From an uncultured Clostridia bacterium (GTDB lineage Bacteria > Bacillota > Clostridia > TANB77 > CAG-508): a DNA stretch of 64,000 nucleotides. The stretch's first letter is position 1. Every line of letters starts with the position of its first letter. Of this stretch, positions 17,199-35,680 are shown piece after piece. Position numbers and translations under genes: made by a program. Location of the stretch: assembly GCA_947594845.1 (NCBI GenBank), contig CANQEI010000004.1, positions 29,890 to 93,889 on the forward strand, read 5' to 3'. The notes under the pieces were generated by a model that did no database searches, was not told the origin of the DNA, and saw nothing but the letters and a program-made list of their open reading frames with translations.

Positions 17199-17201
17199 TG
17201 A

Positions 17202-17241
17202 AATACTATGAATGCAAAATTACATTCATAGTATTTTTTTT
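17202..17241 (+). terminator. Rho-independent terminator of rsmA
   Basis: Perfect 13-bp stem aatactatgaatg (17202-17214) / cattcatagtatt (17223-17235), T-run. Confidence 0.8.
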
Positions 17242-17332: not shown

Positions 17333-17361
17333 TTGAAAAATGCCTATAGGTATAGTATAAT
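17333..17361 (+). promoter_or_regulatory. Sigma-A promoter of the giant surface-protein operon
   Basis: TTGAAA (17333-17338), 17-nt spacer, TATAAT (17356-17361), about 65 nt before the ATG at 17426. Confidence 0.6.
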
Positions 17362-17425
17362 ATTATTGTGAGTTTGCCTGAATGGAAAAGCTTACGGAAA
17401 GAAGGAAACCAAGGAGGATGTTTAT

Positions 17426-20400
17426 ATGTTAAAAAGGGGTGCAATTGACAGAAAGATAATAGCAACAATTTTAATTTTTTGTTTTGCTTTTATGAATTAC
17501 TTTACATTATTTTCAACAATAAGTTTTGCAGATGATAATGAACTAGGAAAACAAAAATCAAGCCGTTCATCTGCTAACGTTGAATATGATGTAAAGTTTT
17601 TTCAAAATAACGAAGAAAAAGGATATGAATATGAAGGTGGAATAAATGAAGAAAACTTATCTATTCATATAAAAACAGAAGTAAAAAATGAAGGATATCT
17701 TAGAAATGCAAAAATTTTAATCGAATCAGAAAATGGATTATCTTTTGATATTTTAGCAGAAAGCGGAGATAAGTATCAAATAAAAGATAATCAAATTGAC
17801 TTATCAAATATAGCTGCAGGAGAGATGTCTGAAATAGTATTACCAATTAAATATAAAGAAAGAGAAGACATAGAAAACCTAAACAAAAAAATAAATGCTA
17901 GATTAGTTGGTGTATACGTAGATAAAGACGGAAATGAAAAAGGAATTTCCGAAAATATCATATTAAGACTAGTTTGGAAAACAAATACGCAATTTGAATT
18001 AGAATCTAACATAGAAAAATATATTCCATATGTAAATGAAAATCAAAAAGGAATAATTATACAAACTAGTATAAAGGCTAATATGCCAATAAATAATTCT
18101 TTTGTAGAAAAAGAAGAATTACAAATTGAAGCCCTACAAATTGAAGATTATAAAATAGAAAAAGTATCAGTTGTAAGAAAATCTGGAGAAGAATTATCTC
18201 AAGATAATTGGAAATTTGATGAGGAAAATAATAAGGTAGAAATAAAATTAGAAGATTCTAAATCATTAAAATCTGAAGAATTTCTAATTACATATATTTT
18301 TTCTGGTGAAAAAGAATTACAAATGCCATTAAAATTAAATTCAAATATTAATGGTACTATTTTCATGTTTGGAAATAATGAAACTTCAGCAGCTCAATTA
18401 AATGCTGAATATGATATTACAGAAAAAATTGGAGAAATAGTTACATTTGAAGCAATATCAACAGAAAGTGTAAAAGTAGGTAATTTAATTTCAAATAAAT
18501 TTAATTCAGAAAATAATTATCCTGTAAATTATGAAACTAAAATAGTAAGCAACATTTCTTCAGCAGATTTAGTAGATGGAATAATGATTACTGAAAATAG
18601 TGATGAATTTGAAAAAGAAGAAGTTAAAGTTCCAACAAATTCACTAAATAAATCAATAAGAGTAAATAAAGATAACTTTGAAAAAATATTAGGACAAGAT
18701 GGAACAATACAAATTCTTAACTCAAATGGAGAAGTAGTTGCAGAATTGAATTCAAACATGCTAGTTGATGATAATTATGCAATTACATTTGAAAATGGAT
18801 TAGATACATTGACTATAAAAACAACAGCCCCAAAAACAGATGGAAACTTAATGATAAATATTGAAAAAGAAATTATCAATACTGATTATACAGTAGACGA
18901 AATAAAAACATTCTCAAATATAGATTTAAAATATACAGGAAGTATATTATATGAAGAAAATATTGAAAATAAAGTCTTAGAAATGGAATCAAAAATACAA
19001 TTAGAAAAACCACAAACTAAGGCTGATATAACTTTATCAAGAAATACATTAAGTACAATAGCTGAAAATAATGATATTGAGCTAACTATAAAATTGAATA
19101 ATACAAATGAAGAAGTAGATTTATATCAAAATCCAAGCTTTAGCTTAGTATTTCCTGAATATATAGAAGATGTCGAAGTATCAAATATAGCTTTAGCAAA
19201 CAATGAAGACGTATTTATAATAAAAGACGCTAATATAAATAAAAATGAAGAAGGAAAAATTGTTTTAAATATTGAATTAGAAGGAACACAAAGCAAATAT
19301 AACGCAAATCATTTAGCTAATGGAACAAATTTAATTGTAAAAGCTAATATGAAATTAAACATTTATACTCCAATGAAACAAGATTCAATAGAAATGATAT
19401 ATGCAAACCAAAATGCTACAAGTTATGCAAATACAATTAATGGAATGGGATATGCAGAAGCTAAAATTGAATATAAAGCCCCTGTGGGAATGGTAAGTGT
19501 AAATAAAATTTCTAATTATGGTCAAGAAGGAAAATCAATAGTATCTGTTGAACAAGGAAAAATTACTGACAAAATAGATATATATAGTGATGCAAAAATT
19601 GCTACAATGGAAATTTTAGTTATGAATAACAATGAAAATAATTGTAGCGATATAAAAATATTAGGACGTATACCTTTTAAAGGAAATAAAGACGTTAAAA
19701 CAGGAAAAGACTTAGGAACAACTGTTGACACAACTCTTGCTAGTGGCATTATAGCTGCCCAAGAAAATTTAGCAAATGCTACAGTATATTATTCTACAAA
19801 TGGAGAAGCAACAGAAAAATTAGATGATGAAAAAAATGGATGGACAACAGAAATAAATAATTTATCAGAAGTTAAATCATATCTAATTGTAGTAAATGAT
19901 TATGAAATTAAACCTGGAGATGTTCTAAGATATTCTTATCAATATAGAATACCAGAAAACCTAGAACACAATAATAATATTTATGGTTCTTTTGAAACTA
20001 TATACAGTAATCTAAAAGATGTAGCTACAACAACAGAAATATCAGCACCTGATTTAGTAGGACTTACAACTGGTGTTGGACCACAATTATCTGTAACAGT
20101 ATTGCCAAATATTAAAGATACTGCTAAGGAATATGAAAAAATAAAATATACTATCGAATTAGAAAATAAAGGAACAGATATTGCTGAAGATGTAAAAGTT
20201 AATGTAGCAATACCAAAAGGTTCAACTCTTGCAACACATCAAACACAAAGTACAGTAGAAGCATCAAAAGGTTGGACGCTAAAAGCTGACAAAGAATTTA
20301 CAAAAACAATAAAAAGCATAAATCCAGGAGAAAAACAAACAATAGAGTTTTTTGTACAAGTAAACAAATTGCCAACGATTGAAGAATTCTATGCAAGCAA

Positions 20401-22507
20401 AGAAGGATTTACAAAAAATTCAGATGGAACTTATAGTATTCATGAAAGTTATACTGACGAAAATGGAGAAACAAAATATAAAGATACTCAAGTAAGTGAA
20501 ATTCCTGAAATTAATCTAGTATGCGAAGCTACAATTACTGCAAAAGATCTTCAAAAAGAACTTAAAGTTAAAGATGAAGGTATTGTTGTTGAGAAATCAA
20601 ACTTAATAGCAGAAGAAAGTATTTCTGCAGAAGAAAATATTGTAAAAGTTAATGAAAAAATAGAATCAAAAATCGAAATAAAAAATAATAGTGATTCAAC
20701 AATGAGAAACATTAGAATAGAAAAAGTTTTACCAGAAGGATTAGAATATGTAGACAGTTACATACGAGGATATGATGAAGATGGAATTACTATTAAAAAA
20801 ATAGAAACAGAAGGATATGATTATGCTTCAAGAAAAATTGTATGGGAAATTGAAAGCCTAGAGCCAGGAAGAACAACTTTTGCAATTGCAGAATTGACTG
20901 TAGGAGAAATGAAAGAAAATGTATACAAAGATACAATTTCTACAATTTCAACCATATCAGTAGGTGGAGAAGAATATCAATCAGGACAAGTTGATATAGT
21001 TATAGGAAGGCCAAACTTACAAATAGAACAAAAAGTTCTTCAAACAAATAAATATGTAAAAGTTGGAGATGAAATTGAATATTTATTCAATATAAAAAAT
21101 GCTGGACCTGTAAGAGCTAATGATGTAGTATTAAAAGATTTACTTCCTAAAGAATTACAAATAAGAAAATTAGAATACATAGTTGATGGAGTTGAAGTTT
21201 CAAAGGTTGTTACATCAAATGAAGATGCAACTATATATACAAATATTCAACCTGAAAATGAAATGGTAGCAAAGGTTACAGCAAAAGTAAAAGATATATC
21301 AGATGAACAGAAAACTATAACTAATATAGCAGAATTAAATGCTGAAAACATTGAAACAATAAGGTCAAATGAAATAGAAAATGTAATTGAAAGAACAGTA
21401 AATGCTAATAATACTAATTCAAATGAAAATGAAGAAAACACAGAAAATCAAAATGGAAATCAAGAGTCTAATACAAACAATGCACCTGTTAAAACAAAAT
21501 ATGAGATCACAGGTACTGCATGGATAGATGATAATAAAAATGGTTCAAGAGATAATGGTGAAACAAAACTTTCAGGAGTAGAAGTAAAAATTGTAAATGC
21601 ATCAACAGGAGAACAAATTCAAACAGAAACAACAGCTTTAGATGGAAGTTATGAATTTAAAAACCTAGAAAATGGACAATACATAGTAATATTCTATTAT
21701 AATAGTTCAAAATATGGACTAACTGATTACAAGAAAACAGGTGTTGAAGATAACAAGAATTCTGATGTAATATCAGCAAATGAAGGAAATAAAATTGTTG
21801 CTACAACAGATATAATTACAATTAATAACGGAAGTGTATCTAGTGTAGATATAGGTGTAGTAGAAGCAACAAAATTTGATTTATCATTAGAAAAATCTAT
21901 AACAAAAATAACTGTACAAAATAATGATGGAACTAAAACATATAATTTTGATAATCAAAAACTAGCAAAAGTTGATATAAATGCAAAATACTTAAGCAAT
22001 GCAAAAGTATATGTAGAATATTCTTTCAAAATAAAAAATGAAGGAGAAGTAGAAGGATACGCAAAAAATATAGTAGACTACATGCCTTCAGAACTAGAAT
22101 TTAGTACAGAATTAAATAAAAATTGGTATAGAGGAAATGACGGAAACTTATATACAGAAGAATTATCAAATGCGCCAATAGCAGCAGGAGAGGAAAAAAC
22201 AGTAAAACTTACACTTGTAAAAACAATGACAGAAGAAAATACTGGTATTATAAACAATCAGGCAGAAATAGCAGAAAGCTATAATAAAGCAGGTATTGCA
22301 GATACAGACTCAGAGGCAAACAATAAAGATCAAAAAGAAGATGATATGTCTTCTGCAGATTTAATAATAGGTGTAAAAACTGGAGATACATTAATATACC
22401 TATCAGCAATATTAACAATAACAGTTGCTATGATAATTTTAGCAGTAATAATAAAGAAAAAGAAAATACTATTAAAACTCAAAGTAAAATTTGGAAAGGA
22501 GGTGTAG
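17426..22507 (+). CDS. Giant secreted surface protein (1693 aa): signal peptide, DUF11-type conserved repeats, SdrD/Cna-B-type domain, C-terminal TM + KKKK anchor
   Basis: Signal peptide ...FTLFSTISFA/DD. DUF11-like units are KYTIELENKGTDIAEDVKVNVAIPKGSTL, IEIKNNSDSTMRNIRIEKVLPEGLEYV and YLFNIKNAGPVRANDVVLKDLLPKELQI. The SdrD-B-like unit is GTAWIDDNKNGSRDNGETKLSGVEVKIV...LDGSYEFKNLENGQYIV. The C-terminus is IIGVKTGDTLIYLSAILTITVAMIILAVIIKKKK. SD AAGGAGG. Confidence 0.85.
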   Translation: MLKRGAIDRKIIATILIFCFAFMNYFTLFSTISFADDNELGKQKSSRSSANVEYDVKFFQNNEEKGYEYEGGINEENLSIHIKTEVKNEGYLRNAKILIESENGLSFDILAESGDKYQIKDNQIDLSNIAAGEMSEIVLPIKYKEREDIENLNKKINARLVGVYVDKDGNEKGISENIILRLVWKTNTQFELESNIEKYIPYVNENQKGIIIQTSIKANMPINNSFVEKEELQIEALQIEDYKIEKVSVVRKSGEELSQDNWKFDEENNKVEIKLEDSKSLKSEEFLITYIFSGEKELQMPLKLNSNINGTIFMFGNNETSAAQLNAEYDITEKIGEIVTFEAISTESVKVGNLISNKFNSENNYPVNYETKIVSNISSADLVDGIMITENSDEFEKEEVKVPTNSLNKSIRVNKDNFEKILGQDGTIQILNSNGEVVAELNSNMLVDDNYAITFENGLDTLTIKTTAPKTDGNLMINIEKEIINTDYTVDEIKTFSNIDLKYTGSILYEENIENKVLEMESKIQLEKPQTKADITLSRNTLSTIAENNDIELTIKLNNTNEEVDLYQNPSFSLVFPEYIEDVEVSNIALANNEDVFIIKDANINKNEEGKIVLNIELEGTQSKYNANHLANGTNLIVKANMKLNIYTPMKQDSIEMIYANQNATSYANTINGMGYAEAKIEYKAPVGMVSVNKISNYGQEGKSIVSVEQGKITDKIDIYSDAKIATMEILVMNNNENNCSDIKILGRIPFKGNKDVKTGKDLGTTVDTTLASGIIAAQENLANATVYYSTNGEATEKLDDEKNGWTTEINNLSEVKSYLIVVNDYEIKPGDVLRYSYQYRIPENLEHNNNIYGSFETIYSNLKDVATTTEISAPDLVGLTTGVGPQLSVTVLPNIKDTAKEYEKIKYTIELENKGTDIAEDVKVNVAIPKGSTLATHQTQSTVEASKGWTLKADKEFTKTIKSINPGEKQTIEFFVQVNKLPTIEEFYASKEGFTKNSDGTYSIHESYTDENGETKYKDTQVSEIPEINLVCEATITAKDLQKELKVKDEGIVVEKSNLIAEESISAEENIVKVNEKIESKIEIKNNSDSTMRNIRIEKVLPEGLEYVDSYIRGYDEDGITIKKIETEGYDYASRKIVWEIESLEPGRTTFAIAELTVGEMKENVYKDTISTISTISVGGEEYQSGQVDIVIGRPNLQIEQKVLQTNKYVKVGDEIEYLFNIKNAGPVRANDVVLKDLLPKELQIRKLEYIVDGVEVSKVVTSNEDATIYTNIQPENEMVAKVTAKVKDISDEQKTITNIAELNAENIETIRSNEIENVIERTVNANNTNSNENEENTENQNGNQESNTNNAPVKTKYEITGTAWIDDNKNGSRDNGETKLSGVEVKIVNASTGEQIQTETTALDGSYEFKNLENGQYIVIFYYNSSKYGLTDYKKTGVEDNKNSDVISANEGNKIVATTDIITINNGSVSSVDIGVVEATKFDLSLEKSITKITVQNNDGTKTYNFDNQKLAKVDINAKYLSNAKVYVEYSFKIKNEGEVEGYAKNIVDYMPSELEFSTELNKNWYRGNDGNLYTEELSNAPIAAGEEKTVKLTLVKTMTEENTGIINNQAEIAESYNKAGIADTDSEANNKDQKEDDMSSADLIIGVKTGDTLIYLSAILTITVAMIILAVIIKKKKILLKLKVKFGKEV

Positions 22508-22511
22508 CTAG

Positions 22512-25500
22512 ATGATGAATAACATAAAGAAAAAAATAATTTCAATTTTAACATTATTAACTTTAATAGCTGTAGCATATGCTGGATATAAAGTTTTAGC
22601 AACAGCAACAAATGAAATGTTATCCAAAGATGATAGCTTACCACCAAGTTTCCCATATATAGAATATAATACTTTGATTAGTGATCCATACATACTATGC
22701 TGTGGAAAAGGAATAACACTAAATGGTATGTCAAGAACAGTTGTAAGATCAGGGGATAGACAACAACAAGAACCTTATCTAACAATGAATGATATAGGTA
22801 AAAAAATATTTGAAGAAACTCAAAATGCAAGTGGAGATGTAACATCTAATAATTTTGAAAATCCATATGGTGCTACTACAAGTCGTACAATTGGTTTTTA
22901 TACAGAATCAGATAAAAAAGTTGCATCACCAATGGAAAGCTACATATTAGCAGAAGCATCTGAAAATTTACCATCACAAGGAAGCTCATTCTATAATGTA
23001 ACAGATAGAGAATATACAGGAGACCTTGATGCAGAAGCATATTTTTATAATGTAGAAGGAACTATAATATATGGTGTAAACATTGATGAAAATTCAGGAG
23101 AACCACAAGAATATGTTACACTAGATGAAGAGACAGGAAAATACTATTATATAGAAATAACTAATAGTGGAGAATTTTTCCCATACACATATGTACAATA
23201 TGCATGGTGGAAAACTCCAGCAGGTGGACAATCTAGCCAAGTACAATCAACACCATTTTTCAAAGAAGCAGAAGCATTTGAAGCATATATAAATAAAGTT
23301 GCAAAAAGAGATGAACAAGGAAAAATCGTTACAGAGCAAAAAACAGTCACAGTTAATGGAGAAACAGCAACAGTAACAGTTCCAGTAATAGATTATAAAA
23401 TTTCTGGAGAAGATGATAAATCACAAGTTTATTATGATGAAGACAATGGAAGATATTTAATAGGACCATTTGTATTACATTATTATGAAGAATCTGTAAC
23501 AACAGATAGAGGAACAGTATACTTTTCAAATATAACAGATGCAACAATAGTTAGCAATTTAGGCGCAGTAGATAATTCTAAATGGTTTTTCAAATATACA
23601 GATAGAGATGCAGACGATAAATCAACATTTCCACACAATAATGAAGAATTTTATATAGTAATGGACTATATAGAAGATATGAGATATTTGACAGATATAA
23701 GATTTGATTTTAGATACATGAATGCTGGAGGAGAATATTCAGAATTAAAAGGTGAATACTTTAATGCAAGTTGGGAACCAGAATCAAAAGCAATTTGGTG
23801 TAATGAAGGAGCAAAGAATTGTGCATGTGGAGGACACCATACAAGTGCTCAATATGATTCAAATAATAATTTAACATGTTCTGGCGGAGCAAAAAAATGT
23901 TCACATGGATATTATCATAATCACATTGTAAAATGGGAATATTGGCTAGAATTAGAAAGCTTAGATCCACAAACATCACAGCCATTAGCACAAGTATATG
24001 TAGGTGTAAGATGGTATGAAAAAGCAAATTATTCATTTAAAGCAGAATTTCCACCAGATGAACCAGGACCAAAAGAATATATAAAATTAACAATACCAAT
24101 GGCTGGAGAAGTATGGATAGATATATCTGCAGACAAGAAAAATCCTGATTTTACAGACGGAAAAAGAGAAAATGGAGAAAAAGGTTATAAAAATGCAGAA
24201 GTATATATCTATAAAACATATAAAAACAGTTCTGGTAAAATAGTAAAAAGAGAGTTAGCTGATATATATGATGAAGACAACGAAACAAAACTAAAATATC
24301 CTATTTACACAGACGAAAATGGACATTATGAAATTCCAAATATTAATGTGCCAGGCTCTGGAGACATGATAGAAAATGGATACACTATAGCATATGATGT
24401 AGAATTTAAATATGATGGACAACATTATGAGGCATCACCAGCATTACCAACAGTTAATGGAGATGCACAAAAATATATAAAAGCTTCTAAAAAAGCTAAG
24501 AAAACATATGAAAATGATTCATTAGCTACAGAAAACGAAAAAGTTAGAGAACAATTTAATGAAAAATTTTCAGAAATCTATGGCGGAAAAGCAATAGATA
24601 AAAATGGAGATACAACAGGATATGCTAAAAATGGAAATAACACTTTAAAATTAGATTACACTTCTGAAGAATATACATCACCTGATAATTCTAATAAAAG
24701 AAGACTATCAACATTAACAACTTTAGATAAAAATGAACATATAATTGAGCAATACAAAATGACTGCAACAACAGGAAATACAGGAATATATTTCCCAGTA
24801 AATCATAAAATTTCTTTAGACACAGCTGATGATGTTGTTGAATTAAGTGTTATCGAAAATGAAGATGGAAAAACAACTACATATAAAACAATCTATGATT
24901 ACATGTTACACATAAACTTTGGAGTAAAACAAAGAGAAAAAGCAGATTTATCTGTATTTAAAGATTTATACAAAGCAGAAATTTTAGTAAATGAAAAAGA
25001 AATAACTAAAACATATAACAAATACAGAGATGTGGAAGAAGAAGAAAATAAAGATGCTTTAGATATACAACTAGAAGCTTGCAAGATAGGAAAATATACA
25101 ATAGGATTATATAGCTCTGATTACGAATATCGTTCAACAGTTTATGAAACTAGCCAAGAAGTTGTTAAAAACATGAAAGCTGGAACAGATTTAAAAGTAT
25201 ACTTAACATATAGAATAGCTGTAAATAATGAAAGCCAAGCAGAAGAAGGATTAGATGCAACAATTAATCAAATTAATGATTATTATGATAAAACATTTAC
25301 TTTAATAGATTCTGATATTAGTGCAAACGTATTAGATGATAATCAAAATAGAGTAAACAAAGTAGTTGCAGAAAGCCCATACTATAGAGTCGTTAAAGCT
25401 GATGAAGACGCAGAATATACATATTGGTCTGACAATATGGAAAGATTCAAATGCAATGATACGAACAAAAAGGTAAACAAAGACTACAAAAAATTAACAA

Positions 25501-27695
25501 TAACAGATCTTAAAGGCACAAAATTATCAGCAGGAGATCAACTAGAAATGTTCATAACATTTGAAGTTGACAAAGACGGATATGTAGGAACAACTGATAG
25601 ACCAGAACTATTAGGAGAAAAGAATAATGTTGCTGAAATTGCAAATTACTCAACATTCTATCCAAATGGAAAAGTAGCTGGACTTATTGATAAAGATTCA
25701 GCTCCAGACAATATTGATTTGAATAGAAATGTAAAAGAGTGGTATGAAGATGATACAGAATCAGCACCAGCAACTAACATAGAACTATATGCTTATAACA
25801 GAGAAATTAATGGTACTGTTTGGGAAGACCAAGAAACTGTTAGCCTATTATATAATCAAAAAGTCGGCGATGGTTTAATGGAAGAACAAGAACCAGGTAT
25901 CAAAAATATTGATGTACAATTAGTAGAAAAAATTAAGATTGATGACATCGAATATGAAAAGATTTGGTCTGAAGACGACTTTAAAGGATTGACTGATGAA
26001 GAAAAGAAAGAATACAGATTAAAAGATGTTGAAACAGACGAAAATGGATATTACTATTTCAAAGGCGTATTAGCAGGAAACTATGTTGTAAGATTTAAAT
26101 ATGGAAATAAAGAAGCTAATATAAAATATAATGGTCAAGATTATAAAAATACTGCATATCAAGCAGAAATGCTAAATGAAGATGAAACAACAACATTAAA
26201 TAATGAATGGCAAGATTTAAAAACAAGTAATAAACTAAATGAAACTAGAGTATCAGATGCAAGAGATTATGAATTACAAAGAATGAAAGTAATAGCATAT
26301 TCTAAAAACATAAATAATCAAATAGGAACAGTATTAGAAAGTGCTGATAATCCTGATAAAAGCCATACAGAACTAATTGATAATACTCAAATGGTTGCTA
26401 ATACTGCAAAATTAAATATTGAAATTGAACATCAAGATTTCATTACTTATGGAACTGTTAAGAAGGTAAATGGATTACAAGAATTTACATACAATGTAAA
26501 AGATATAGACTTTGGATTAGAGAAAAGATCTGAAACCGCAATGGAACTTGACAAAAAAATATCAAAAATTTCTTTATATAAAGAAGATGGAGAAACTTTA
26601 TTATTAAATGCTATATATAATGAAGATGGAACAATTGATAGGACAAATCCAGAAGCAATGAGCTTGAATAAATTAACTCATGTTGATGAACAAAGTGATA
26701 TTCAAGGTTTAGATCATATCCATTCAGAAAGCGAATTTTTAAATGGAGCAACACTAAAAATTGAATACACAATAACTTTAACAAATAATTCAGAAGTAGA
26801 TTGGACAGGAAAAATTTCTAGATATGAAAAACCAGAAGAAATTATAGCAGAAGTAGAGAAACTAGAAAAATCTGATATATACGTATCAGGAGAATCAATC
26901 GAATATGGCGAATATGTAGGACTAAATTATTACAATAATAAGAACAATGATACTGACGAAATAGTTGAAACTAAGATAGAACAAATAATTGATTATATTG
27001 ACAATGATATTTCACCAGATGAAGATGCTAATTCACTAGTTGTAAATGAAAGCTGGAGAAAATTATCTTTAGATGAAATTAAAAATGGAAAAATGCTAGA
27101 TGAAAAAGTATACACAAATCTTAATGGAGAATTGACAATAGCAGATTCAAAACAAAGATCATTTATTGGTACAAATAAAAATAATATATTAGTTTCAGAA
27201 AGTGAAGAATATAATCCAAATGCAATTACTAAATTAGTACCTCAAAGTGCTGCTGAGGATTTAGACAAGAAATCAACTGGACAAATAAAAGTTGTAAGTA
27301 CAAAACAATTATCAGAAGAATCTTCAAAAGATGATGTTTATAATAATGTGGCTGAAGTATTAAGTTATTCAAATACAGTTGGTAGAAGAGATCCATTAGC
27401 AGTACCAGGAAATGCTGAAATAGCAAGAGGAGAATATGTTGCAGCAACAGGATATCAAAGCGGAGTACTAGTAATTGACTACGAAGGAGCAAAAGAAATA
27501 ACTATAGGAACATCAGAATTACACCTAAATGGTGAACGTGATACAGATGCATCAGATTATGTATCTATCGCAGAACCAACAGGTATTTCAATTAGAGAAT
27601 ACTATAGTAGAAATTACTATCCAATAATTGCATTAATTACAGGAAGTATATTAGTTGTAGCAATAATTGTAATAAAGAAAAAGATAAAAAAATAA
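22512..27695 (+). CDS. Giant secreted surface protein (1727 aa): signal peptide, Cys...Gln (TQXA-like) N-terminal domain, Cys/His cluster, two SdrD/Cna-B-type domains, C-terminal TM + KKKIKK anchor
   Basis: The start is 4 nt after the upstream stop, with SD AAGGAGGTG. SdrD-B-like units are AGEVWIDISADKKNPDFTDGKRENGEKGYKNAEVYIY...TDENGHYEIPNI and NGTVWEDQE...GIKNIDVQLV...TDENGYYYFKGVLAGNYVVRFKYG. The C-terminus is IAEPTGISIREYYSRNYYPIIALITGSILVVAIIVIKKKIKK. Confidence 0.85.
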   Translation: MMNNIKKKIISILTLLTLIAVAYAGYKVLATATNEMLSKDDSLPPSFPYIEYNTLISDPYILCCGKGITLNGMSRTVVRSGDRQQQEPYLTMNDIGKKIFEETQNASGDVTSNNFENPYGATTSRTIGFYTESDKKVASPMESYILAEASENLPSQGSSFYNVTDREYTGDLDAEAYFYNVEGTIIYGVNIDENSGEPQEYVTLDEETGKYYYIEITNSGEFFPYTYVQYAWWKTPAGGQSSQVQSTPFFKEAEAFEAYINKVAKRDEQGKIVTEQKTVTVNGETATVTVPVIDYKISGEDDKSQVYYDEDNGRYLIGPFVLHYYEESVTTDRGTVYFSNITDATIVSNLGAVDNSKWFFKYTDRDADDKSTFPHNNEEFYIVMDYIEDMRYLTDIRFDFRYMNAGGEYSELKGEYFNASWEPESKAIWCNEGAKNCACGGHHTSAQYDSNNNLTCSGGAKKCSHGYYHNHIVKWEYWLELESLDPQTSQPLAQVYVGVRWYEKANYSFKAEFPPDEPGPKEYIKLTIPMAGEVWIDISADKKNPDFTDGKRENGEKGYKNAEVYIYKTYKNSSGKIVKRELADIYDEDNETKLKYPIYTDENGHYEIPNINVPGSGDMIENGYTIAYDVEFKYDGQHYEASPALPTVNGDAQKYIKASKKAKKTYENDSLATENEKVREQFNEKFSEIYGGKAIDKNGDTTGYAKNGNNTLKLDYTSEEYTSPDNSNKRRLSTLTTLDKNEHIIEQYKMTATTGNTGIYFPVNHKISLDTADDVVELSVIENEDGKTTTYKTIYDYMLHINFGVKQREKADLSVFKDLYKAEILVNEKEITKTYNKYRDVEEEENKDALDIQLEACKIGKYTIGLYSSDYEYRSTVYETSQEVVKNMKAGTDLKVYLTYRIAVNNESQAEEGLDATINQINDYYDKTFTLIDSDISANVLDDNQNRVNKVVAESPYYRVVKADEDAEYTYWSDNMERFKCNDTNKKVNKDYKKLTITDLKGTKLSAGDQLEMFITFEVDKDGYVGTTDRPELLGEKNNVAEIANYSTFYPNGKVAGLIDKDSAPDNIDLNRNVKEWYEDDTESAPATNIELYAYNREINGTVWEDQETVSLLYNQKVGDGLMEEQEPGIKNIDVQLVEKIKIDDIEYEKIWSEDDFKGLTDEEKKEYRLKDVETDENGYYYFKGVLAGNYVVRFKYGNKEANIKYNGQDYKNTAYQAEMLNEDETTTLNNEWQDLKTSNKLNETRVSDARDYELQRMKVIAYSKNINNQIGTVLESADNPDKSHTELIDNTQMVANTAKLNIEIEHQDFITYGTVKKVNGLQEFTYNVKDIDFGLEKRSETAMELDKKISKISLYKEDGETLLLNAIYNEDGTIDRTNPEAMSLNKLTHVDEQSDIQGLDHIHSESEFLNGATLKIEYTITLTNNSEVDWTGKISRYEKPEEIIAEVEKLEKSDIYVSGESIEYGEYVGLNYYNNKNNDTDEIVETKIEQIIDYIDNDISPDEDANSLVVNESWRKLSLDEIKNGKMLDEKVYTNLNGELTIADSKQRSFIGTNKNNILVSESEEYNPNAITKLVPQSAAEDLDKKSTGQIKVVSTKQLSEESSKDDVYNNVAEVLSYSNTVGRRDPLAVPGNAEIARGEYVAATGYQSGVLVIDYEGAKEITIGTSELHLNGERDTDASDYVSIAEPTGISIREYYSRNYYPIIALITGSILVVAIIVIKKKIKK

Positions 27696-27710
27696 AGTTA
27701 AAAAATAAGA

Positions 27711-27750
27711 AATCTAGTTAGAAAATATTTCTAACTAGATTTTTTATTTT
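27711..27750 (+). terminator. Rho-independent terminator of the surface-protein operon
   Basis: Perfect 14-bp stem aatctagttagaaa (27711-27724) / tttctaactagatt (27728-27741), 3-nt loop, T-run. Confidence 0.85.
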
Positions 27751-27817
27751 GCATATATATTCACAAATTGGAAAAAATAGCAATAAAACCAAAAACAAGA
27801 GGAGAAGAAAAATTCCA

Positions 27818-30800
27818 ATGGAAAAATATAAATACTTAAATATAAAAGGAACCAATTTAGAAAAAGAGCAATTACAAAAGTATTTACAACAAATGGCAGA
27901 GGAACAGATAATAAGCAAAAATTCTGAAACCTTAACATATCCAATTGAAAAATTAAAAATAAATTATAGAAATATATTAAAAACATATGAAATATTAAAT
28001 GAGCATTTAAAATTAGGAATAAAAATACATTCTGCTGGAGAATGGCTACTCGACAATTTTTATATAATAGAAGAATCAATTAAAAACATAGAAAAAAATA
28101 TAAATTTAAAAAAATATGTTAAATTACCAGGATTAAGTAATGGCAAATATAAAGGATTCGCAAGAATATATGTGCTAGCTAGTGAAATTGCAGCTTTTAG
28201 TGGAGATAAAATTGATGAAGAGAAAATAATTGATGCACTTCAAAGCTATCAGACAAGGAAAATTTTATCAATGGAAGAAATTTGGAATATAGGTTTATTT
28301 ATTCAGATAGCAATAATACAGACTATTGCAGATATAAGTGAAAAAATTTATTTTTCGCAAATCCAAAAGTATAAAGTAGAAAATATATTTGAAAGATTAA
28401 TAGAAGCTAAAACAAATAAAGAACAAAGATTTAGAAAAAAATTTAAAAATAATAATTCATTAAAAATAAAAGATATAAATTATTCTTTTATTGAATATAT
28501 GTTGTATAAGCTTAGAAGAATTGGCAAAAGAGGAAATCAGTATATTGAAATATTAGAGAAACAAGTAAATAAGTTAGGCTTTAAAACAGATGAAATCGTG
28601 AAAAAGGAACATTTATATGTAGCAACACTTAAAATAAAAATAGGAAGTTGCATAACTAGTATAAAAGATATAAATAGAATTAATTTTCAAAAAGTATTTG
28701 AAAAAACTAATAAAACTGAAGAATTACTAAATGAAGATCCTTGCAAAGTATTTAAGAAAATGACAGAAGAAACTAAAGAGGTTTATAGAGAAAAGATAAA
28801 AGAAATATCAAATAAATTGAAAATATCTGAAATATATATAACAGAAGAAATATTGAAATTATCAAATAGATATAAAGACGAAAAAAATGTAAAAGAAAAA
28901 AGGAAATCACATGTAGGATATTATTTAATTGATGACGGAAAAAATGAATTAATGGAGGAATTAACTGAAAAAAGGATTAAGAAAAAACACAAGTTAAATC
29001 CAAAAACATACATTAATGGAATTATTTTTATATCACTCTTTATAGATCTTTTTTTTGTGTGGAATTTAAAAATGCCAGCATTAGTTAGCCTAATAACTGC
29101 AATCTTAATATATATACCAATCTATGAAATAGTAATAAAAATTATAAATTATATAATGTGTAAAATTATAAAACCAATAAAAATACCTAAGATAGATTAT
29201 GAAAATGGAATTGATGATGAAAATAAAACAATGGTAGTAATACCAACTGTTATAGATACAAAAGAAAAAATTATAAAAATGTTTAAAAAGATGGAAGTAT
29301 ATTATTTAGCAAACCAAGATAAAAACTTGTATTTTACCTTATTGGGGGATTGCACAAGTTCTGAAAAAGAAGTGGAAAAAATTGATCAAGAAATTATAGA
29401 ATGTGGAAAAAAAGAAGCGGAAAAATTGAATTCAATATATAAAACTAAAAATAAGTTTAATTTTTTATATAGAAGAAGAAAATGGAATCCAAATGAAGAA
29501 AAATTTCTAGGATGGGAGAGAAAAAGAGGTTTATTAATACAATTTAATGAACTTATATTAGAAAAAAACAAATCAGACTTTATTGCTAACACATTAGAAG
29601 ACTTTGATGAAAAAATAAAATATATAATAACATTAGATGCTGATACAAATTTAATTATTAATTCTGCACAACAACTAGTTGGGGCAATGAGTCATATCTT
29701 AAATAGACCTATAGAAGAAGAGGGTGTTATAAAAAAAGGATATGGAATAATGCAACCTAGGATTGGTATAACATTAGAAGATTCACAAAAAACAATATTC
29801 ACTAAAATATTTACATCAAATCCAGGTGTAGATTTTTATACAAATGCCATATCAGATTTATATCAAGATTGCTTTGGAGAAGGGATATTTACTGGAAAAG
29901 GTATATATGACTTAAATGTATATCAAAAAATACTAAAAAATAAATTACCAGAAAATAAAATATTGAGTCATGATTTGTTAGAAGGAAATTACTTAAGATG
30001 TGCTTTAGTATCAGATATTGTACTTTTAGATTCATTTCCAACTAAATATTTATCATATTTAGAAAGAGAAAATAGATGGATAAGAGGAGATTGGCAAATT
30101 TCTGGCTGGTTGGAAAGAAAAATAAACAATGAAAAAAATCCAATAAATAGTTTAAGTAAATTTAAAATATTTGAAAATTTAAGAAGAAGTGTATTACCAA
30201 TAACACAAATAACATTACTAATTTTTTCAATGCTAATAAATAATTTCTTTATAGCAATTGTTGTACTTTTATCTGTATTCACAGGCAGCATATTAGAGAT
30301 AATAAATAAAATAATTTTTAGAAAAAGCATAACAGAAGAAAAAATATATGCGAATAAAAAATTTGATAAAACAATTTCAGGTATAAAAGAATGCGTATTA
30401 AGAAATTCATTGGAATTTACATTTATTCCAACAACATCATTAAATTCTGCAACTGCAATAATAAAAACAATATATAGGCTAAAGAAAAATAAAAAGTTAT
30501 TGGAATGGAAAACGTCTGAAGAAGTTGAGAAAAAATCTATAGATTCTTTAGAGTATTATTGCAAAAAAATGTGGATTAATATAATAATTGGAATATTAAT
30601 GTTTGGAATAATAAATCCTTTTGGAATGATTATAGGAACATTATGGATTTTAGGACCATATATTGCATGGAATATAAGTAGAGATATAAGAAAAACAAAA
30701 ATAATAAATGAAAAAAGTAAAAAATATTTAATTGAAATTGCAAAGGAAACATGGATATATTTTAGTGAAAGTTTTAAAAGTGAAAATAATTTTTTGACAC

Positions 30801-33800
30801 CTGATAATTTTCAATTAGGGAGAAAAAAAGAATTTGTAAATAGGACTTCATCAACTAATATTGGGTTAGAAATATTATCAATAATTTCCGCATATGATTT
30901 AAAATTTATTAGCTTAGAAGAATGCATAAGTTCACTAAATAAAGTAATAAATACAATACAGAAATTAGAAAAATGGAATGGACACTTATACAATTGGTAT
31001 AACATAAAGACACTAAAACCATTGACTCCTAAGTATATATCAACAGTAGACAGCGGAAATTTTATTGGATATTTGTATTGCCTAAAAAATTTTTTAATAA
31101 GTAAAAATCAACCAGAAAAAATGATAGAAACAGTTAGCAAGATAATTGACGATACTGATTTTAAATTATTGTATAGTAACAAAAATAGATTATTTTCCAT
31201 AGGTTTTGATGTTGAAAATAACAAATTAACAGATTCTTATTATGATTTTTTAGCTTCAGAAGCAAGGCAAACGAGTTTTATTGCAATAGCCAAAAAAGAT
31301 ATAAAATATAAACATTGGACAAATTTAAGTAGAACATTAACATCTTCAAATGGATATAAAGGACTTATTTCTTGGTCTGGAACAGCATTTGAATACTTAA
31401 TGCCAAATTTAATAATGAAAGTTCCAGAAGGAAGTTTAATAGATGAATCTTGCAAATTTGCTAAAATCAGCCAATTAGAATATGCTAAAAATAATTCAAT
31501 ACCATGGGGAATTTCAGAATCAGCATATTCACTAAAAGATTTACAAAGTAATTATCAATATAAAGCATTTGGAATACCTGAACTAGGTTTAAAAAGAGGA
31601 CTAGAAGAAGAATTTGTAGTATCTCCATATAGTACTTTTTTATTTTTAGAATATGCTTTAGAAGAGGGAATAAAGAACTTAAAACAATTAGAAAAATTGG
31701 GTGCAAGAGGAAAATATGGATTTTATGATTCAATAGATTTTACCAAAGAAAGAATAAGAGAAAATAAAAAATATGAACTTGTAAAAACTTATATGGCACA
31801 CCATCAAGGATTAATATTGAACTCAATAAATAATATTATAAATAATAATATTTTATCAACAAGATTTAGCAATAATCCAGAAATTAAGTCAATAGAAATA
31901 TTATTAAATGAAAGAATGCCAGAATCAGTTATATTATCAAAAGAAAATTCTAACAAAGTAATAAAAGGAAAATATGTAAATAAATATGAAGATAAAGAAA
32001 TTGCTTACAAAAATGAAAATATATATAGAAGAGTAAATGCAATTTCTAATAATGATTACACATGCGTAATTGATACATCAGGAAAAGGATATAGTAAATA
32101 TCAGAATATTCAAATAAATAGATACAGAAATAGAAATAAAGAAAAAGAAGGAATTGCATTTTTTATTAAAAATCAGAGAAATAAAAAAGTATGGAGTACA
32201 TTTAAAAGCGACGAAATAAAGTTTACACAATATAAAGAAGAATTTACAAAAAGAGAAGATAATATAGAAACAAAAATGAAATTTTTTCTATCACCAGATG
32301 AACCTGGAGAAATTAGAAGTCTAAAATTAAAAAATCATGGAGTTTTGAAAGAAGAATTAGAAATATATAGTTATATAGAACCAATTTTATCAGAAAATAA
32401 AGATGATATAGCACATCCAATTTATAATAACATGTTCTTAAAATTAGAATATATAAAAGGAATAATAGTTATATCAAGGAAAATAAAAGAAAGAACAATT
32501 TATTTAGGAGTAAAATTACTAACTCCAAATGATGAAGAAACAGAAATAGAATTAGATAAAGAAAAATTTTGGGGAAGAAATTCAGAGTATCCTAAAAGTA
32601 TAATAGAAACAGATAATTTTACAAACGAATTAATAGAAACAGTAGAACCAATAGTTGCAATAAAAACAAAAATAGAAATAAGTCCGAAAGAAGAAAAAGA
32701 AATTGATTTATTATTATATATTTCAGAAAATAAAGAAGACCTAATAAATAAGATTGAAAGTATGAACATTGAAAATGTTAATAAAGATTTAGAATTAGCA
32801 AAAGCAAAAAGCGAAGAAGAAATAAAATTCTTAGAGATTAATGGAAATAAAATTGAAAACAATCATAAAATATTAGGACATTGCATAGAAAAAGACTTAC
32901 CTAAAACAATTGATATAGATTATAAAATAGAAAACGTTTGGAAATTTGGAATATCCGGAGATAATCCGATTATATTGGCTAAAATAAAAAATATAGAAGA
33001 AGCACATTTAGTCGAAGAACTTCTAGAGACTATTGAATTTTTTAATGTAAAAAACATAAGGATAGATCTATGTATATTAAATAATGAAAAAATAAGTTAT
33101 GAAACATTTGTAAAAGATGAAATAAACGAAATTATAAAAAATCATAGATTAGAATATCTAAGGAATAACCAAATTTTTGTATTTAACAAAAATGAATTAA
33201 CTGAACAAGATATACAAATAATACAAAGTATTTCATGTATGTGCTTTGATGGAGAAATCGGAGGAGTAAAAAACAATTTAGATGAAATTGAAAACATAGA
33301 AATAATCAGTGCAACACAAGAATACGAAAAAAGTAGTAAGAATGAAGAAGTAGAAAAAAGTAATCTAATATATGATAACTCGTTTGGAGGATTTTTAAAT
33401 GATGAATATGTAATAAATGTAAATAATGAAAATGTACCTCCACGAGTATGGAGCAACATTATTGCAAATAAAAAAATAGGAACAGTAATTACAGAAAACT
33501 TAGGAGGATACACTTGGATAAATAATTGTAGATTAAATAGAATTACAACTTGGGAGAACGATAGTATCAGAGATTTTTCAACAGAAACATTTTATATAAA
33601 AGATATAGATGAAAAACAATATTGGACATTAGGGTCAGAACCAAAATATAATTCATATCAAGTAAAATATGGACAAGGTTATGCAAAATTTATTCAAATC
33701 AATAACAATCTTGTTCAAGAAAATACAATATTTATACCAATTAATGGAGAAAGTAAAATAAATCATATTAGCATAAAAAATAAACTACCAAGTAAGAGAA

Positions 33801-35680
33801 AAATCACTATTTATTATGCTCTTGATTTAACAATGGGAGAAACAAAAGAAAAAAACTTAGGAAAAATTAGAGCAATAAAAGATAAAAACAATATTATAAT
33901 AGATAATGTGTGTAAAAGTGAATTTGATGATAAGATAAAAATAACATCTGATTTTAAAATAAATTCATATACTAACAGCAAATATGAATTCTTTAATAAA
34001 GACATGGAAGCTATTGGAATAAATAAAAAAATATTAAAATGTTTCGGAAATATTTCACAAGGAAATGAGATAGTTATAGAAATACCAATTGAACTTGAAG
34101 AATATGAAAAAAAGCTAGTAAATATAATTATAGGAAACGATGCCGAAAAATATTTAAACAATAATGATGTAGAAAATGAATTTGAAAATGTAGAAAAATA
34201 TTGGCGTGAAAAAACTGGAATTGTAAAAATAAAAACACCATCAGAAAAGATAAATTTATATATGAACAAATGGCTTGTATACCAAACCATTACAAGTAGA
34301 TTAAATGCCAAAACTGGGTTTTATCAATCTGGAGGTGCAACCGGATTCAGAGACCAATTACAAGATTCTATAGGAATGAAGTGGATTGATGAAGAAATTT
34401 TGAAACAGCAAATAATAGAAGCTGCTAAACACCAATTTATCGAAGGAGATGTAATGCATTGGTGGCACACAAAAAACAAATCAGGAATTAGAACAAACAT
34501 ATCAGATGATTTATTGTGGCTACCATATAGCGTATTAGAATATTTAAAATTTACAGAAGATGCGAGTATATTAGATGAAAAAATTGAATATGCAAAAGGA
34601 ATTGAACTAGAAGGAGAAAAGGAAAAATATGATAAATTTGAATATACAAAAGAAAAGGAAAGTCTATATCAACATTGTATGAGAGCAATTGAAAAATCTC
34701 TAAACTTCGGGAAAAATGGATTCCCTAAAATCGGAACTGGAGATTGGAATGATGGATTTAACAAGATTGGGCATAAAGGTCAAGGAGAAAGTGTATGGCT
34801 AGGTTTCTTTCTATATGATATATTAAGAAAATGGGAAAATGTCATAGAATATAAAAATGAGAGTAAAGAAAAATATAGTAATATAAGAAAAGAATTAAAA
34901 AAATCATTAAATGAAAATGGCTGGGATGGATTTTGGTTTAAAAGAGCAATAACAGATGACGGAGAAATTATCGGAAGTAGCAAAAGTAAAGAATGTAAAA
35001 TAGATAGTATTACACAGAGCTGGTCAGTAATTTCAGAAGCGGGAAATAATGATAAAAAGTATATAGCAATAGAATCTGCTAAAAAATACTTAATAGACGA
35101 AGAGAATAAAATAATAAAACTATTAACACCTCCATTTAATGGAGAAACTAATCCAGGATATATACAAGAATATCCTAATGGTGTAAGAGAAAATGGAGGG
35201 CAGTATACACATAGTGCAATATGGCTTATTATGGCTTTCGCAAAATTAGGTATGATAGATGAAGCAGTAAAGTATTTAGAAATGATTAATCCAATAACAC
35301 ATACAGAAACAAAAGAAGGAGTAATTAAATATAAAATAGAGCCATATGTAATTCCTGGAGATGTTTATAATAATAAATTTATGAATGGTAAAGGAGGATG
35401 GAGCTGGTATACTGGTTCTAGCAGCTGGTATTACAAAGTATGCTTAGAAGATATTTTAGGAATAAAGAGAGCAGGAAAAAAATTGTTTATTCCAAATAAA
35501 ATTCCAAATAATTGGGATAAATTTGAAATACAATACAGATATAAAAGTAATTTATATAATATAAAAGTAATGAAAGATAATACAGAGAAATCAATAAAAT
35601 ATAATGGTGAAAAAATAAATACAGAATACATTGAGTTAAAAGATGATAACAAAATTGAAAATATTGATATAAAATTGTAA
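27818..35680 (+). CDS. Cyclic beta-1,2-glucan synthase (Cgs/NdvB/ChvB) homologue, ~2620 aa: N-terminal domain, GT84 glycosyltransferase, TM helices, (alpha/alpha)6 cyclisation-type domain, C-terminal GH94 phosphorylase-type domain
   Basis: Family motifs, read in order. N-terminal domain: GEWLLDNFYIIEE. GT84: VVIPTVIDT, ITLDADTN (29635-29643), GIMQPRIG, LSHDLLEG (29966-29986), ENRWIRGDWQ (30074-30097). Cyclisation-type domain: RTSSTNIGLEILS, STVDSGNF, SWSGTAFEYLMP, PWGISESAY, YMAHHQGL. GH94: GFRDQLQDS, HWWH, GTGDWNDG (34733-34756), NGGQYTHSAIW, SWYTGSSSWYY. I place the start at ATG 27818 because the ATG at 27749 in the ORF track lies inside the upstream terminator T-run. Confidence 0.85.
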   Translation: MEKYKYLNIKGTNLEKEQLQKYLQQMAEEQIISKNSETLTYPIEKLKINYRNILKTYEILNEHLKLGIKIHSAGEWLLDNFYIIEESIKNIEKNINLKKYVKLPGLSNGKYKGFARIYVLASEIAAFSGDKIDEEKIIDALQSYQTRKILSMEEIWNIGLFIQIAIIQTIADISEKIYFSQIQKYKVENIFERLIEAKTNKEQRFRKKFKNNNSLKIKDINYSFIEYMLYKLRRIGKRGNQYIEILEKQVNKLGFKTDEIVKKEHLYVATLKIKIGSCITSIKDINRINFQKVFEKTNKTEELLNEDPCKVFKKMTEETKEVYREKIKEISNKLKISEIYITEEILKLSNRYKDEKNVKEKRKSHVGYYLIDDGKNELMEELTEKRIKKKHKLNPKTYINGIIFISLFIDLFFVWNLKMPALVSLITAILIYIPIYEIVIKIINYIMCKIIKPIKIPKIDYENGIDDENKTMVVIPTVIDTKEKIIKMFKKMEVYYLANQDKNLYFTLLGDCTSSEKEVEKIDQEIIECGKKEAEKLNSIYKTKNKFNFLYRRRKWNPNEEKFLGWERKRGLLIQFNELILEKNKSDFIANTLEDFDEKIKYIITLDADTNLIINSAQQLVGAMSHILNRPIEEEGVIKKGYGIMQPRIGITLEDSQKTIFTKIFTSNPGVDFYTNAISDLYQDCFGEGIFTGKGIYDLNVYQKILKNKLPENKILSHDLLEGNYLRCALVSDIVLLDSFPTKYLSYLERENRWIRGDWQISGWLERKINNEKNPINSLSKFKIFENLRRSVLPITQITLLIFSMLINNFFIAIVVLLSVFTGSILEIINKIIFRKSITEEKIYANKKFDKTISGIKECVLRNSLEFTFIPTTSLNSATAIIKTIYRLKKNKKLLEWKTSEEVEKKSIDSLEYYCKKMWINIIIGILMFGIINPFGMIIGTLWILGPYIAWNISRDIRKTKIINEKSKKYLIEIAKETWIYFSESFKSENNFLTPDNFQLGRKKEFVNRTSSTNIGLEILSIISAYDLKFISLEECISSLNKVINTIQKLEKWNGHLYNWYNIKTLKPLTPKYISTVDSGNFIGYLYCLKNFLISKNQPEKMIETVSKIIDDTDFKLLYSNKNRLFSIGFDVENNKLTDSYYDFLASEARQTSFIAIAKKDIKYKHWTNLSRTLTSSNGYKGLISWSGTAFEYLMPNLIMKVPEGSLIDESCKFAKISQLEYAKNNSIPWGISESAYSLKDLQSNYQYKAFGIPELGLKRGLEEEFVVSPYSTFLFLEYALEEGIKNLKQLEKLGARGKYGFYDSIDFTKERIRENKKYELVKTYMAHHQGLILNSINNIINNNILSTRFSNNPEIKSIEILLNERMPESVILSKENSNKVIKGKYVNKYEDKEIAYKNENIYRRVNAISNNDYTCVIDTSGKGYSKYQNIQINRYRNRNKEKEGIAFFIKNQRNKKVWSTFKSDEIKFTQYKEEFTKREDNIETKMKFFLSPDEPGEIRSLKLKNHGVLKEELEIYSYIEPILSENKDDIAHPIYNNMFLKLEYIKGIIVISRKIKERTIYLGVKLLTPNDEETEIELDKEKFWGRNSEYPKSIIETDNFTNELIETVEPIVAIKTKIEISPKEEKEIDLLLYISENKEDLINKIESMNIENVNKDLELAKAKSEEEIKFLEINGNKIENNHKILGHCIEKDLPKTIDIDYKIENVWKFGISGDNPIILAKIKNIEEAHLVEELLETIEFFNVKNIRIDLCILNNEKISYETFVKDEINEIIKNHRLEYLRNNQIFVFNKNELTEQDIQIIQSISCMCFDGEIGGVKNNLDEIENIEIISATQEYEKSSKNEEVEKSNLIYDNSFGGFLNDEYVINVNNENVPPRVWSNIIANKKIGTVITENLGGYTWINNCRLNRITTWENDSIRDFSTETFYIKDIDEKQYWTLGSEPKYNSYQVKYGQGYAKFIQINNNLVQENTIFIPINGESKINHISIKNKLPSKRKITIYYALDLTMGETKEKNLGKIRAIKDKNNIIIDNVCKSEFDDKIKITSDFKINSYTNSKYEFFNKDMEAIGINKKILKCFGNISQGNEIVIEIPIELEEYEKKLVNIIIGNDAEKYLNNNDVENEFENVEKYWREKTGIVKIKTPSEKINLYMNKWLVYQTITSRLNAKTGFYQSGGATGFRDQLQDSIGMKWIDEEILKQQIIEAAKHQFIEGDVMHWWHTKNKSGIRTNISDDLLWLPYSVLEYLKFTEDASILDEKIEYAKGIELEGEKEKYDKFEYTKEKESLYQHCMRAIEKSLNFGKNGFPKIGTGDWNDGFNKIGHKGQGESVWLGFFLYDILRKWENVIEYKNESKEKYSNIRKELKKSLNENGWDGFWFKRAITDDGEIIGSSKSKECKIDSITQSWSVISEAGNNDKKYIAIESAKKYLIDEENKIIKLLTPPFNGETNPGYIQEYPNGVRENGGQYTHSAIWLIMAFAKLGMIDEAVKYLEMINPITHTETKEGVIKYKIEPYVIPGDVYNNKFMNGKGGWSWYTGSSSWYYKVCLEDILGIKRAGKKLFIPNKIPNNWDKFEIQYRYKSNLYNIKVMKDNTEKSIKYNGEKINTEYIELKDDNKIENIDIKL

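Follow-up and report, generated by a model that had tools for sequence, protein, structure and literature searches.

We analysed a 64,000-nucleotide stretch of DNA from an uncultured Clostridia bacterium (contig CANQEI010000004.1, positions 29,890 to 93,889 of the forward strand), hereafter the window, which contains a block of three giant envelope genes named P1, P2 and P3, the last of which encodes a cyclic glucan synthase (CGS). An initial annotation of this DNA had read the three genes, together with the two-component system (TCS) that follows them, as a possible single module. Our results lead to a different view: the block probably consists of two independent units, a P1-P2 operon and CGS, lying in a variable slot that extends from rsmA to a WalRK-like TCS.

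The block is 18.25 kb long and occupies 28.5% of the window, in agreement with the earlier estimate of more than a quarter; the coordinates of the open reading frames (ORFs) and the features reported with them were all recovered. The elements on which the argument rests are the following.

17426..22507, + strand: P1, ORF of 1693 amino acids (aa)
22512..27695, + strand: P2, ORF of 1727 aa
27749/27818..35680, + strand: P3 (CGS), ORF of 2643 aa from a TTG, or 2620 aa from the ATG at 27818
17200..17237, + strand: intrinsic terminator after rsmA, closing the upstream unit (hairpin and T-run)
17333..17361, + strand: putative sigma-70-like promoter of the P1-P2 operon, TTGAAA-17-TATAAT (consensus match, 11/12 positions)
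22497..22514, + strand: coupling junction, with AGGAGG within the last P1 codons (GKEV*), a spacer of 4 nucleotides (nt) and the P2 ATG
27704..27749, + strand: intrinsic terminator after P2 (15-bp stem at 27710-27742, A-U extension, TTTATTT)
27750..27785, + strand: conserved leader or promoter element of CGS, TGCATATATATTCACAAATTGGAAAAAATAGCAAT (from comparison of relatives)

The ATG at 27818, preceded by AGGAG, is the likely start of CGS.

Coupling of P1 and P2

Relatives were collected from the P2 side by nine context look-ups and a metagenome scan giving 44 loci. In about 48 loci, with P2 identities ranging from 29 to 100%, a P1-like gene was found immediately 5′ of P2, and in all of them the distance from the P1 stop to the P2 start was between −8 and +6 nt. 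Comparison of P1 C-termini (L001-L130) showed that even relatives at about 30% identity keep the last residues, GKEV* or KGGV*, most likely because their codons carry the Shine-Dalgarno sequence of P2 (GGAGG). The 4-nt gap, the AGGAGG inside the P1 end and the maintenance of the junction in some 48 loci uphold the translational coupling of the first two ORFs that had been suggested earlier. Such strict conservation implies that P1 and P2 are made together in a fixed proportion. The hosts of the pair are uncultured gut Clostridia, sampled from humans, rabbits and ruminants. The sequence comparisons support the view that P1-P2 is a genuine conserved unit of coupled surface-fibre-type proteins.

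Some loci depart from this arrangement. In one genome type, L007, L008 and L101, P2 is intact and CGS is absent, within the backbone of the window; all that is left of P1 after the same promoter is a remnant of 116 aa (L007 6848-7198), which matches P1 residues 9-92 at 30% identity. As P1-less loci were seen in independent assemblies, P2 can persist without P1. A third giant gene was scored directly upstream of the P1-like gene in L092 (1-4115), L093 (1-4363), L094 (1-4074) and the P0044 contig. In these distant lineages its product measures from 2047 to more than 3500 aa, and the downstream genes are unrelated to those of the window. By tblastn it is a P2 paralogue in L092 and L094, no such match being obtained in the other two. 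The ancestral cluster may have had three genes.

Transcription signals

A terminator after rsmA and a canonical promoter before P1 had been predicted, and both were found again (hairpin 17200-17237, promoter 17333-17361). A similar CTTGAAAAA...TATAAT is present at the equivalent position in L007. Promoter-like matches in this AT-rich window are as frequent as in shuffled sequences (143 vs 143.6), which deprives the scan of discriminating power; only the intergenic position of 17333-17361 therefore lends it weight. The hairpin after P2 is a perfect 15-bp stem followed by a T-run, of about −21 kcal/mol, so that the perfect stem of the initial annotation stands and its length of 14 bp is to be corrected. 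A strong hairpin with a T-run opens the P2-CGS spacer in 8 of the 8 genomes compared where P2 abuts CGS. As the hairpin sequences differ among genomes, it is the function that is conserved, not the sequence.

The last part of the spacer upstream of CGS is an element of about 35 nt kept among relatives, TGCATATATATT...TTGGAAAAAATA (also written TGCATATATATT..TTGGAAAAAATAGCAAT), placed 30-70 nt before the CGS start in L003, L011, L012, L013, L019, L020, L024 and L036. It is kept whatever the gene upstream, L013 having it without P2 upstream, and a related 'ATGCATAAAAATT...' or 'ATGCATAAAAATTCCAC' element is present in CGS loci that are more distant. It is a possible promoter or operator. Given the terminator after P2 and the separate CGS leader, P1-P2 looks like a bicistronic operon, and CGS like a gene with its own control region. 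A search of the whole window with Rfam, at gathering thresholds, returned one tRNA only and no RNA element in the block; on this basis, the idea that the P1 or the CGS leader holds a riboswitch or another known RNA was rejected.

Distribution of the three genes

CGS loci were analysed by tblastn and ORF analysis, at least 5.5 kb of upstream flank being required (67 loci). P1-P2 was found upstream of CGS in 6 of these 67 loci, or species, all six being close relatives whose CGS is 61-73% identical; in the other 61 species, CGS has no P1-P2 upstream. The closest CGS relative, L013 (74% identical), carries a different adhesin upstream, P2 being absent, and then continues with CGS-walRK. This adhesin, of at least 903 aa, has a P1-like C-terminal anchor made of 'ISIATGEE' and a transmembrane (TM) helix.

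Seen from the other side, CGS lies downstream of P1-P2 only where P2 is at least 68% identical. In L102 and L106 (P2 65% identical) the order is rsmA-P1-P2-walR-walK-lepB-holB, with CGS absent, and in about 35 distant P1-P2 loci CGS is missing from the flanking sequence at hand, which extends to 10 kb at most. The gene-neighbourhood check proposed with the initial annotation thus found no co-occurrence of the three families beyond the clade with P2 at 68% identity or more. At the level of gene distribution, this is the very result that the initial annotation had named as refuting its module. The claim that fibre pair, synthase and TCS form one module was abandoned, since each unit occurs alone, even within the same backbone. 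The triple adjacency is lineage-specific and belongs to one roughly genus-level clade of uncultured gut Clostridia.

The neighbouring two-component system

35753..36505, + strand: OmpR-type response regulator (best NCBIfam match YycF/WalR)
38217..39680, + strand: HAMP-PAS-HisKA histidine kinase (best NCBIfam match WalK)

Both matches fall below the curated equivalog cut-offs (regulator, YycF score 290.5 vs 340; kinase, WalK score 349 vs 725). The regulator is 91-97% identical among relatives whose neighbour genes are 56-78% identical, and loci that lack CGS or P1 (e.g. L007) still have the pair in place together with lepB and holB. We read it as a backbone envelope-homeostasis system rather than as part of a module.

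A choline/glucan-binding-repeat gene (36615-37946, minus strand) lies between the regulator and the kinase, with a local GC content of about 0.39 vs about 0.28 for its surroundings. Regulator and kinase are adjacent in most relatives, and only L020 has the insert as well (44% identity). The insertion appears to be recent and to have split the TCS pair.

The competing explanation holds that the fibre pair, the cyclic-glucan synthase and the TCS are one co-regulated surface-matrix or adhesion system, in which glucan and fibres cooperate. Several points speak for it, or at least against two independent units. The genes are tightly packed on the same strand, and the order P1-P2-CGS-walR is kept in the clade of the window, with some 8 genomes at species level plus about 9 metagenome contigs (L003, L011, L012, L019, L020, L024, L036, L095-L100, L104 and L105). 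No terminator-like site was found in the 72 nt between CGS and the response regulator, as had been noted earlier; read-through of the terminator after P2 is possible in these genomes, which are all uncultured metagenome-assembled genomes (MAGs). WalRK-like systems control envelope genes in Firmicutes. About 17 of the 66 loci whose flank was long enough, some of them distant, have a WalRK-like pair as the immediate neighbour of CGS, and in L044 it lies upstream of CGS; this adjacency could reflect either an inherited gene order or a regulatory link. Finally, the P2 head, described below, has no characterised relative, and the function of P1-P2 is deduced from domain types.

Against a single system, P1-P2 and CGS are each found alone, in the same backbone (L102, L106 and L013) and in all distant lineages. 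The terminator after P2 is conserved and CGS has its own leader, the TCS stays in place without CGS or P1 (L007), and no glucan exporter gene (Cgt/ChvA/NdvA-type ABC exporter) was found among the window genes scanned. A single co-regulated system thus appears very unlikely to us. A functional cooperation of P1-P2 with CGS, specific to this clade, could still exist; no new fibre-plus-glucan system is to be claimed from the adjacency.

The block could also be thought of as a horizontally acquired genomic island. It sits, as the initial annotation described, in a housekeeping backbone: tilS, ftsH, nrdDG, dnaG, rpoD, PPIase, PBP and rsmA lie upstream, and downstream of CGS come the regulator, the choline/glucan-binding-repeat gene, the kinase and signal peptidase I (lepB), all four of the genes announced there, then holB and fab and acc genes. 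This conserved backbone is interrupted by the block, whose content varies among close relatives, as an island would have it. However, GC content and skew are those of the flanks (block 0.23-0.30; window about 27%, skew uniform), and no integrase, flanking tRNA or repeat was found, the only tRNA being 7 kb upstream. Moreover, the divergence of P1, P2 and CGS (56-74%) keeps pace with that of the backbone genes rsmA and PBP (64-72%). Horizontal acquisition of an island is highly improbable and was rejected, on composition and on the lack of integrase and flanking tRNA.

The stalk protein P1

22370..22474, + strand: sorting-signal-like C-terminal module of P1 (GVKTGD, directly a TM helix, then a basic tail)

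P1 consists of a signal peptide, a long beta-rich stalk, a TM helix (aa 1653-1683) and a basic tail, its hydrophobic segments being one at the N-terminus (aa 10-30) and one at the C-terminus. It matches DUF11/CLIPPER at 86.6 bits (Pfam cut-off 24.6) in four stretches, the best at aa 1198-1319, and SdrD_B at 58.6 bits (cut-off 29.7) at aa 1363-1457. NCBIfam family TIGR01451 is matched at 82 bits, and among structures in the PDB, P1 resembles the B-domains of SdrD and UafA. DUF11, since renamed CLIPPER, serves fibrillar adhesins as a CnaA-like stalk domain and is able to form an isopeptide bond, although this bond is missing from some DUF11 domains (PMC12617251). No recognised adhesive head domain was found in P1. 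By these domain matches, P1 is a fibrillar-adhesin-type protein with CLIPPER (CnaA-like) and SdrD_B (CnaB-like) immunoglobulin-like (Ig-like) domains.

The C-terminal region of P1 reads 'DxDSxxNN..EDD..SADLII-GVKTGD' before the TM helix, and its terminus '...SADLIIGVKTGD', followed by the TM helix and the basic tail. The motif, [IV]-x-TG-[EDG], is kept in P1 relatives down to about 30% identity and is not LPXTG.

P2 and its head domain

22599..24101 (aa 30-530), + strand: P2 head domain (AlphaFold2 model and family alignment; no Pfam match)

P2 begins with a signal peptide or anchor and a head of about 500 aa, continues with at least two CnaB-like modules, and ends with a TM helix (aa 1701-1725) and KKKIKK; like P1, it has one N-terminal and one C-terminal hydrophobic segment. 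The TM helix and lysine-rich tail that had been attributed to both proteins are thus present in each. Its Pfam matches, to SdrD_B and CarboxypepD_reg, are all sub-threshold, the SdrD_B/CnaB-like modules being located from about aa 532 and at aa 1165-1235. Four distant P2 homologues likewise gave SdrD_B, SpaA and CarboxypepD_reg matches that are all sub-threshold. The description of both products as Ig-like proteins of DUF11 and SdrD/Cna-B type therefore holds for P1, above the Pfam cut-offs, and is weakly shown for P2. The C-terminus of P2 has a conserved 'ERDxDA..V(S/T)xxEPTG', the family motif being [EPD]PTG.

No NCBIfam match was obtained for P2, nor any relative of solved structure at E ≤ 1 when the single sequence or the family profile was compared with the PDB. 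BLASTP at E ≤ 1e-2 gave no match between P1 and P2, and neither showed internal repeats in self BLASTP at E ≤ 1e-3, the Ig-like modules being too divergent for BLAST. The P2 family is small, with 62 clusters in 5.8 billion proteins. Its head matches 89 representatives only, among 1.84 billion proteins, at or near the N-terminus of the targets, many of which are giant. The AlphaFold2 model of the head has a pLDDT of 89 and a pTM of 0.81, and Foldseek found no significant PDB neighbour for it. C63 and Q229 never vary in an alignment of 36 sequences reaching down to 31% identity, and the conservation of Q490 there is 90% or more. The model places C63 on a strand, Q229 in a VQYAWW helix and Q490 at the tip of a long beta-hairpin.

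These three residues raise the question of whether P2 is a covalent adhesin of thioester type (TED/TIE-like), with a C63-Q490 thioester, VQ229YAWW standing for TQxxΦW, and P1 as stalk or partner fibre. TEDs have a strand bearing the cysteine, a helix bearing the Q/W motif, and a long hairpin that bears the glutamine and folds back over the N-lobe (PMC6194298), and the order of motifs and the secondary structure of the P2 head fit this description. When the N-lobe is modelled alone, pLDDT falls from 89 to 75 and strands are lost, as expected of an interlocked fold, and the class II TED BaTIE (6FWV) is among the weak Foldseek matches (E 0.03-0.05). Nevertheless, P2 and three homologue heads gave no TED/TQXA match in Pfam or NCBIfam at E ≤ 10, and the family profile finds no TED among PDB sequences. 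Foldseek TM-scores are about 0.1 with probabilities of about 0.2, no class I TED is retrieved from either model and no TED at all from the N-lobe alone, and the Cys motif, LCCG, is canonical only in part. A thioester adhesin is therefore an unlikely identity for P2. The TED assignment of the head was not confirmed by two AlphaFold2 models, two Foldseek searches, hidden Markov model (HMM) scans and the PDB profile search, what is left being a compatibility at the level of motifs.

The P2 head also contains a Cys/His-rich loop, CNEGAKNCACGGHH...CSGGAKKCSHGYYHNH (23799-23924, aa 430-471), of which P0043 (P2 about 36% identical) has a reduced form and P0044 (about 35%) none. It could be a lineage-specific metal or disulfide site.

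Putative C-terminal anchoring

The ends of both proteins are built as in cell-wall sorting signals, with the motif first, then a hydrophobic helix, then a basic tail, and the motifs are conserved across the two families, [IV]xTG[EDG] for P1 and [EPD]PTG for P2. CnaA- and CnaB-type domains are typical of Gram-positive pilins. P1 and P2 might hence be sortase-assembled pilus-like subunits, shaft and tip, polymerised and linked to the wall via the xxTG motifs. Yet no sortase gene was found in the window or in any gene-called neighbourhood inspected, the motifs lack the LP of LPXTG, and sizes of 1700-2900 aa are far above those of known pilins. Compared with LPXTG sortase substrates, P1 and P2 show the tripartite layout, with GVKTGD and AEPTG as motifs, and no sortase in the window or the inspected neighbourhoods. 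We regard the pilus hypothesis as rather unlikely.

Other large surface proteins encoded a few kb upstream of CGS carry an 'I-S-I-x-T-G' motif, a TM helix and an 'IKKFVI'-type tail (L025 2-1885, L033 3250-7098, L080 15-4406, L083 66-5051 and L013 247-2958), an example of such an end in related MAGs being 'ISIKTGA...IKKFVI'. The succession of xxTG, TM helix and basic tail may be a lineage-wide, non-LPXTG anchoring signal.

The cyclic glucan synthase

27818..35680, + strand: CGS, with an N-terminal domain, TM blocks, GT84, GH189 cyclase and GH94

The initial annotation took the third ORF, of about 2620 aa, for a homologue of beta-glucan synthases, and this was borne out. Comparison with Agrobacterium tumefaciens Cgs (8RF0/8RF9) gave E = 0 and 1348 bits over two aligned stretches, the GT region and aa 1112-2584, and comparison with the GH189 cyclase of Thermoanaerobacter italicus, TiCGS (8WY1), gave E = 7e-128. 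GT84 occupies aa 426-799, the GH189 cyclase aa ~975-1400 and the GH94 phosphorylase aa 1405-2548, with TM blocks at the expected places (aa 397-444, 797-834 and 920-945). In GT84, LLGDC, TLDADT, SHDLLEG and ENRWIRGDWQ align to D527, D624, D626, D739 and R773 of the A. tumefaciens enzyme, whose active site has D739 as catalytic base and R773 in the RW motif (PMC10901819). In the cyclase, STVDSGN, LASEAR, FEY, WGISES and MAHHQG align to known catalytic positions: D1104 and E1300 of the A. tumefaciens enzyme and E1356, E1400, E1442, H1536 and H1537 of TiCGS are conserved. In TiCGS, E1356 is the acid/base and E1442 the nucleophile (PMC10834661). GH94 is matched over the full length of the Pfam model Glyco_hydro_94 (E = 4e-99), and its supersandwich domain at E = 7.5e-79; the D of GDWNDG aligns to catalytic D2528 of the A. 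tumefaciens protein. By every testable criterion of sequence, P3 is a member of the Cgs family, and the CGS genes of these Clostridia are complete and seem to be active.

A scan with one genome per species gave 275 CGS relatives. The best 80 of these were kept (L011-L090), and all 80 are uncultured gut Clostridia MAGs. Full-length CGS homologues are widespread in such MAGs, their sources being human, Hadza, rabbit and ruminant samples.

Proposed explanation

Two independent units could work as follows. In the first (17333-27749), one promoter, translational coupling and one terminator would yield P1 and P2 in a fixed ratio. Both proteins would be exported by Sec and anchored at the surface by their C-terminal ends, in which motif, TM helix and basic tail resemble a sorting signal. 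P1 would provide an Ig-domain stalk, and P2 a conserved head carried on CnaB-like modules. From the coupling and the domain types we infer that the two most likely act jointly, as an extended surface fibre or adhesin assembly. In the second unit, CGS, at the cytoplasmic membrane, would use GT84 to start a glucan chain on itself, GH94 to set the chain length and GH189 to close the ring, its predicted product following from the start, elongation, trimming and cyclisation of beta-1,2-glucan described for its homologues (PMC10901819, PMC10834661).

One can go further and imagine P1 and P2 as obligate subunits of an undescribed giant heteromeric fibre, the P2 head being a new binding domain or a domain of covalent capture (thioester-like Cys-Gln), with non-LPXTG 'xxTG' anchoring and with CGS possibly conditioning the envelope in this clade. 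We hold so elaborate a scheme to be improbable.

Comparison with known systems

To our knowledge, cyclic beta-1,2-glucan synthases have been studied almost only in Proteobacteria. No paper describing the P1-P2 pair, or beta-1,2-glucan synthases in gut Clostridia, was found in a literature coverage that is incomplete. What is new here is modest: a deeply conserved, coupled giant pair with a head of unknown fold, and intact CGS that are abundant in uncultured gut Clostridia. The P1-P2 pair is a candidate colonisation factor of organisms that have never been cultured, and the frequency of CGS in these Clostridia (275 species-level genomes matched) asks what role a cyclic glucan would have in the cells and in the gut.

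With TIE adhesins of the class II TED type (BaTIE 6FWV, SaTIE; PMC6194298), P2 shares an N-terminal head on a CnaB-like stalk and, in the model, has an order and secondary structure of Cys, Q/W-helix and Gln that are compatible with theirs. It differs in having a head twice the size of a TED, without HMM match and with structural scores that are not significant. P1 resembles CLIPPER/CnaB fibrillar adhesins (Protein Sci 2025, PMC12617251) and staphylococcal SdrD: like them it is very long, starts with a signal peptide, carries CLIPPER and SdrD_B domains in tandem and ends in a C-terminal anchor. It departs from them by its GVKTGD-type motif instead of LPXTG, by the lack of a recognised adhesive head, and by always preceding a translationally coupled giant P2.

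In Clostridioides difficile, SrtB substrates have (S/P)PxTG or NVQTG sorting signals. P1 and P2 resemble them as clostridial surface proteins with a non-LPXTG 'xxxTG', a TM helix and a basic tail. However, the P1 motif has no proline, that of P2 is xEPTG or xPPTG, and no sortase was found for the lineage of the window (window and inspected neighbourhoods).

The clearest likeness is that of P3 to Agrobacterium Cgs. P3 is about 200 aa shorter, its host is an uncultured, low-GC gut Clostridia bacterium, and no cgt/chvA-type ABC exporter lies near it. For the rest, the two proteins are colinear over their full length and share the GT84-cyclase-GH94 order, the TM blocks and the catalytic residues that were checked.

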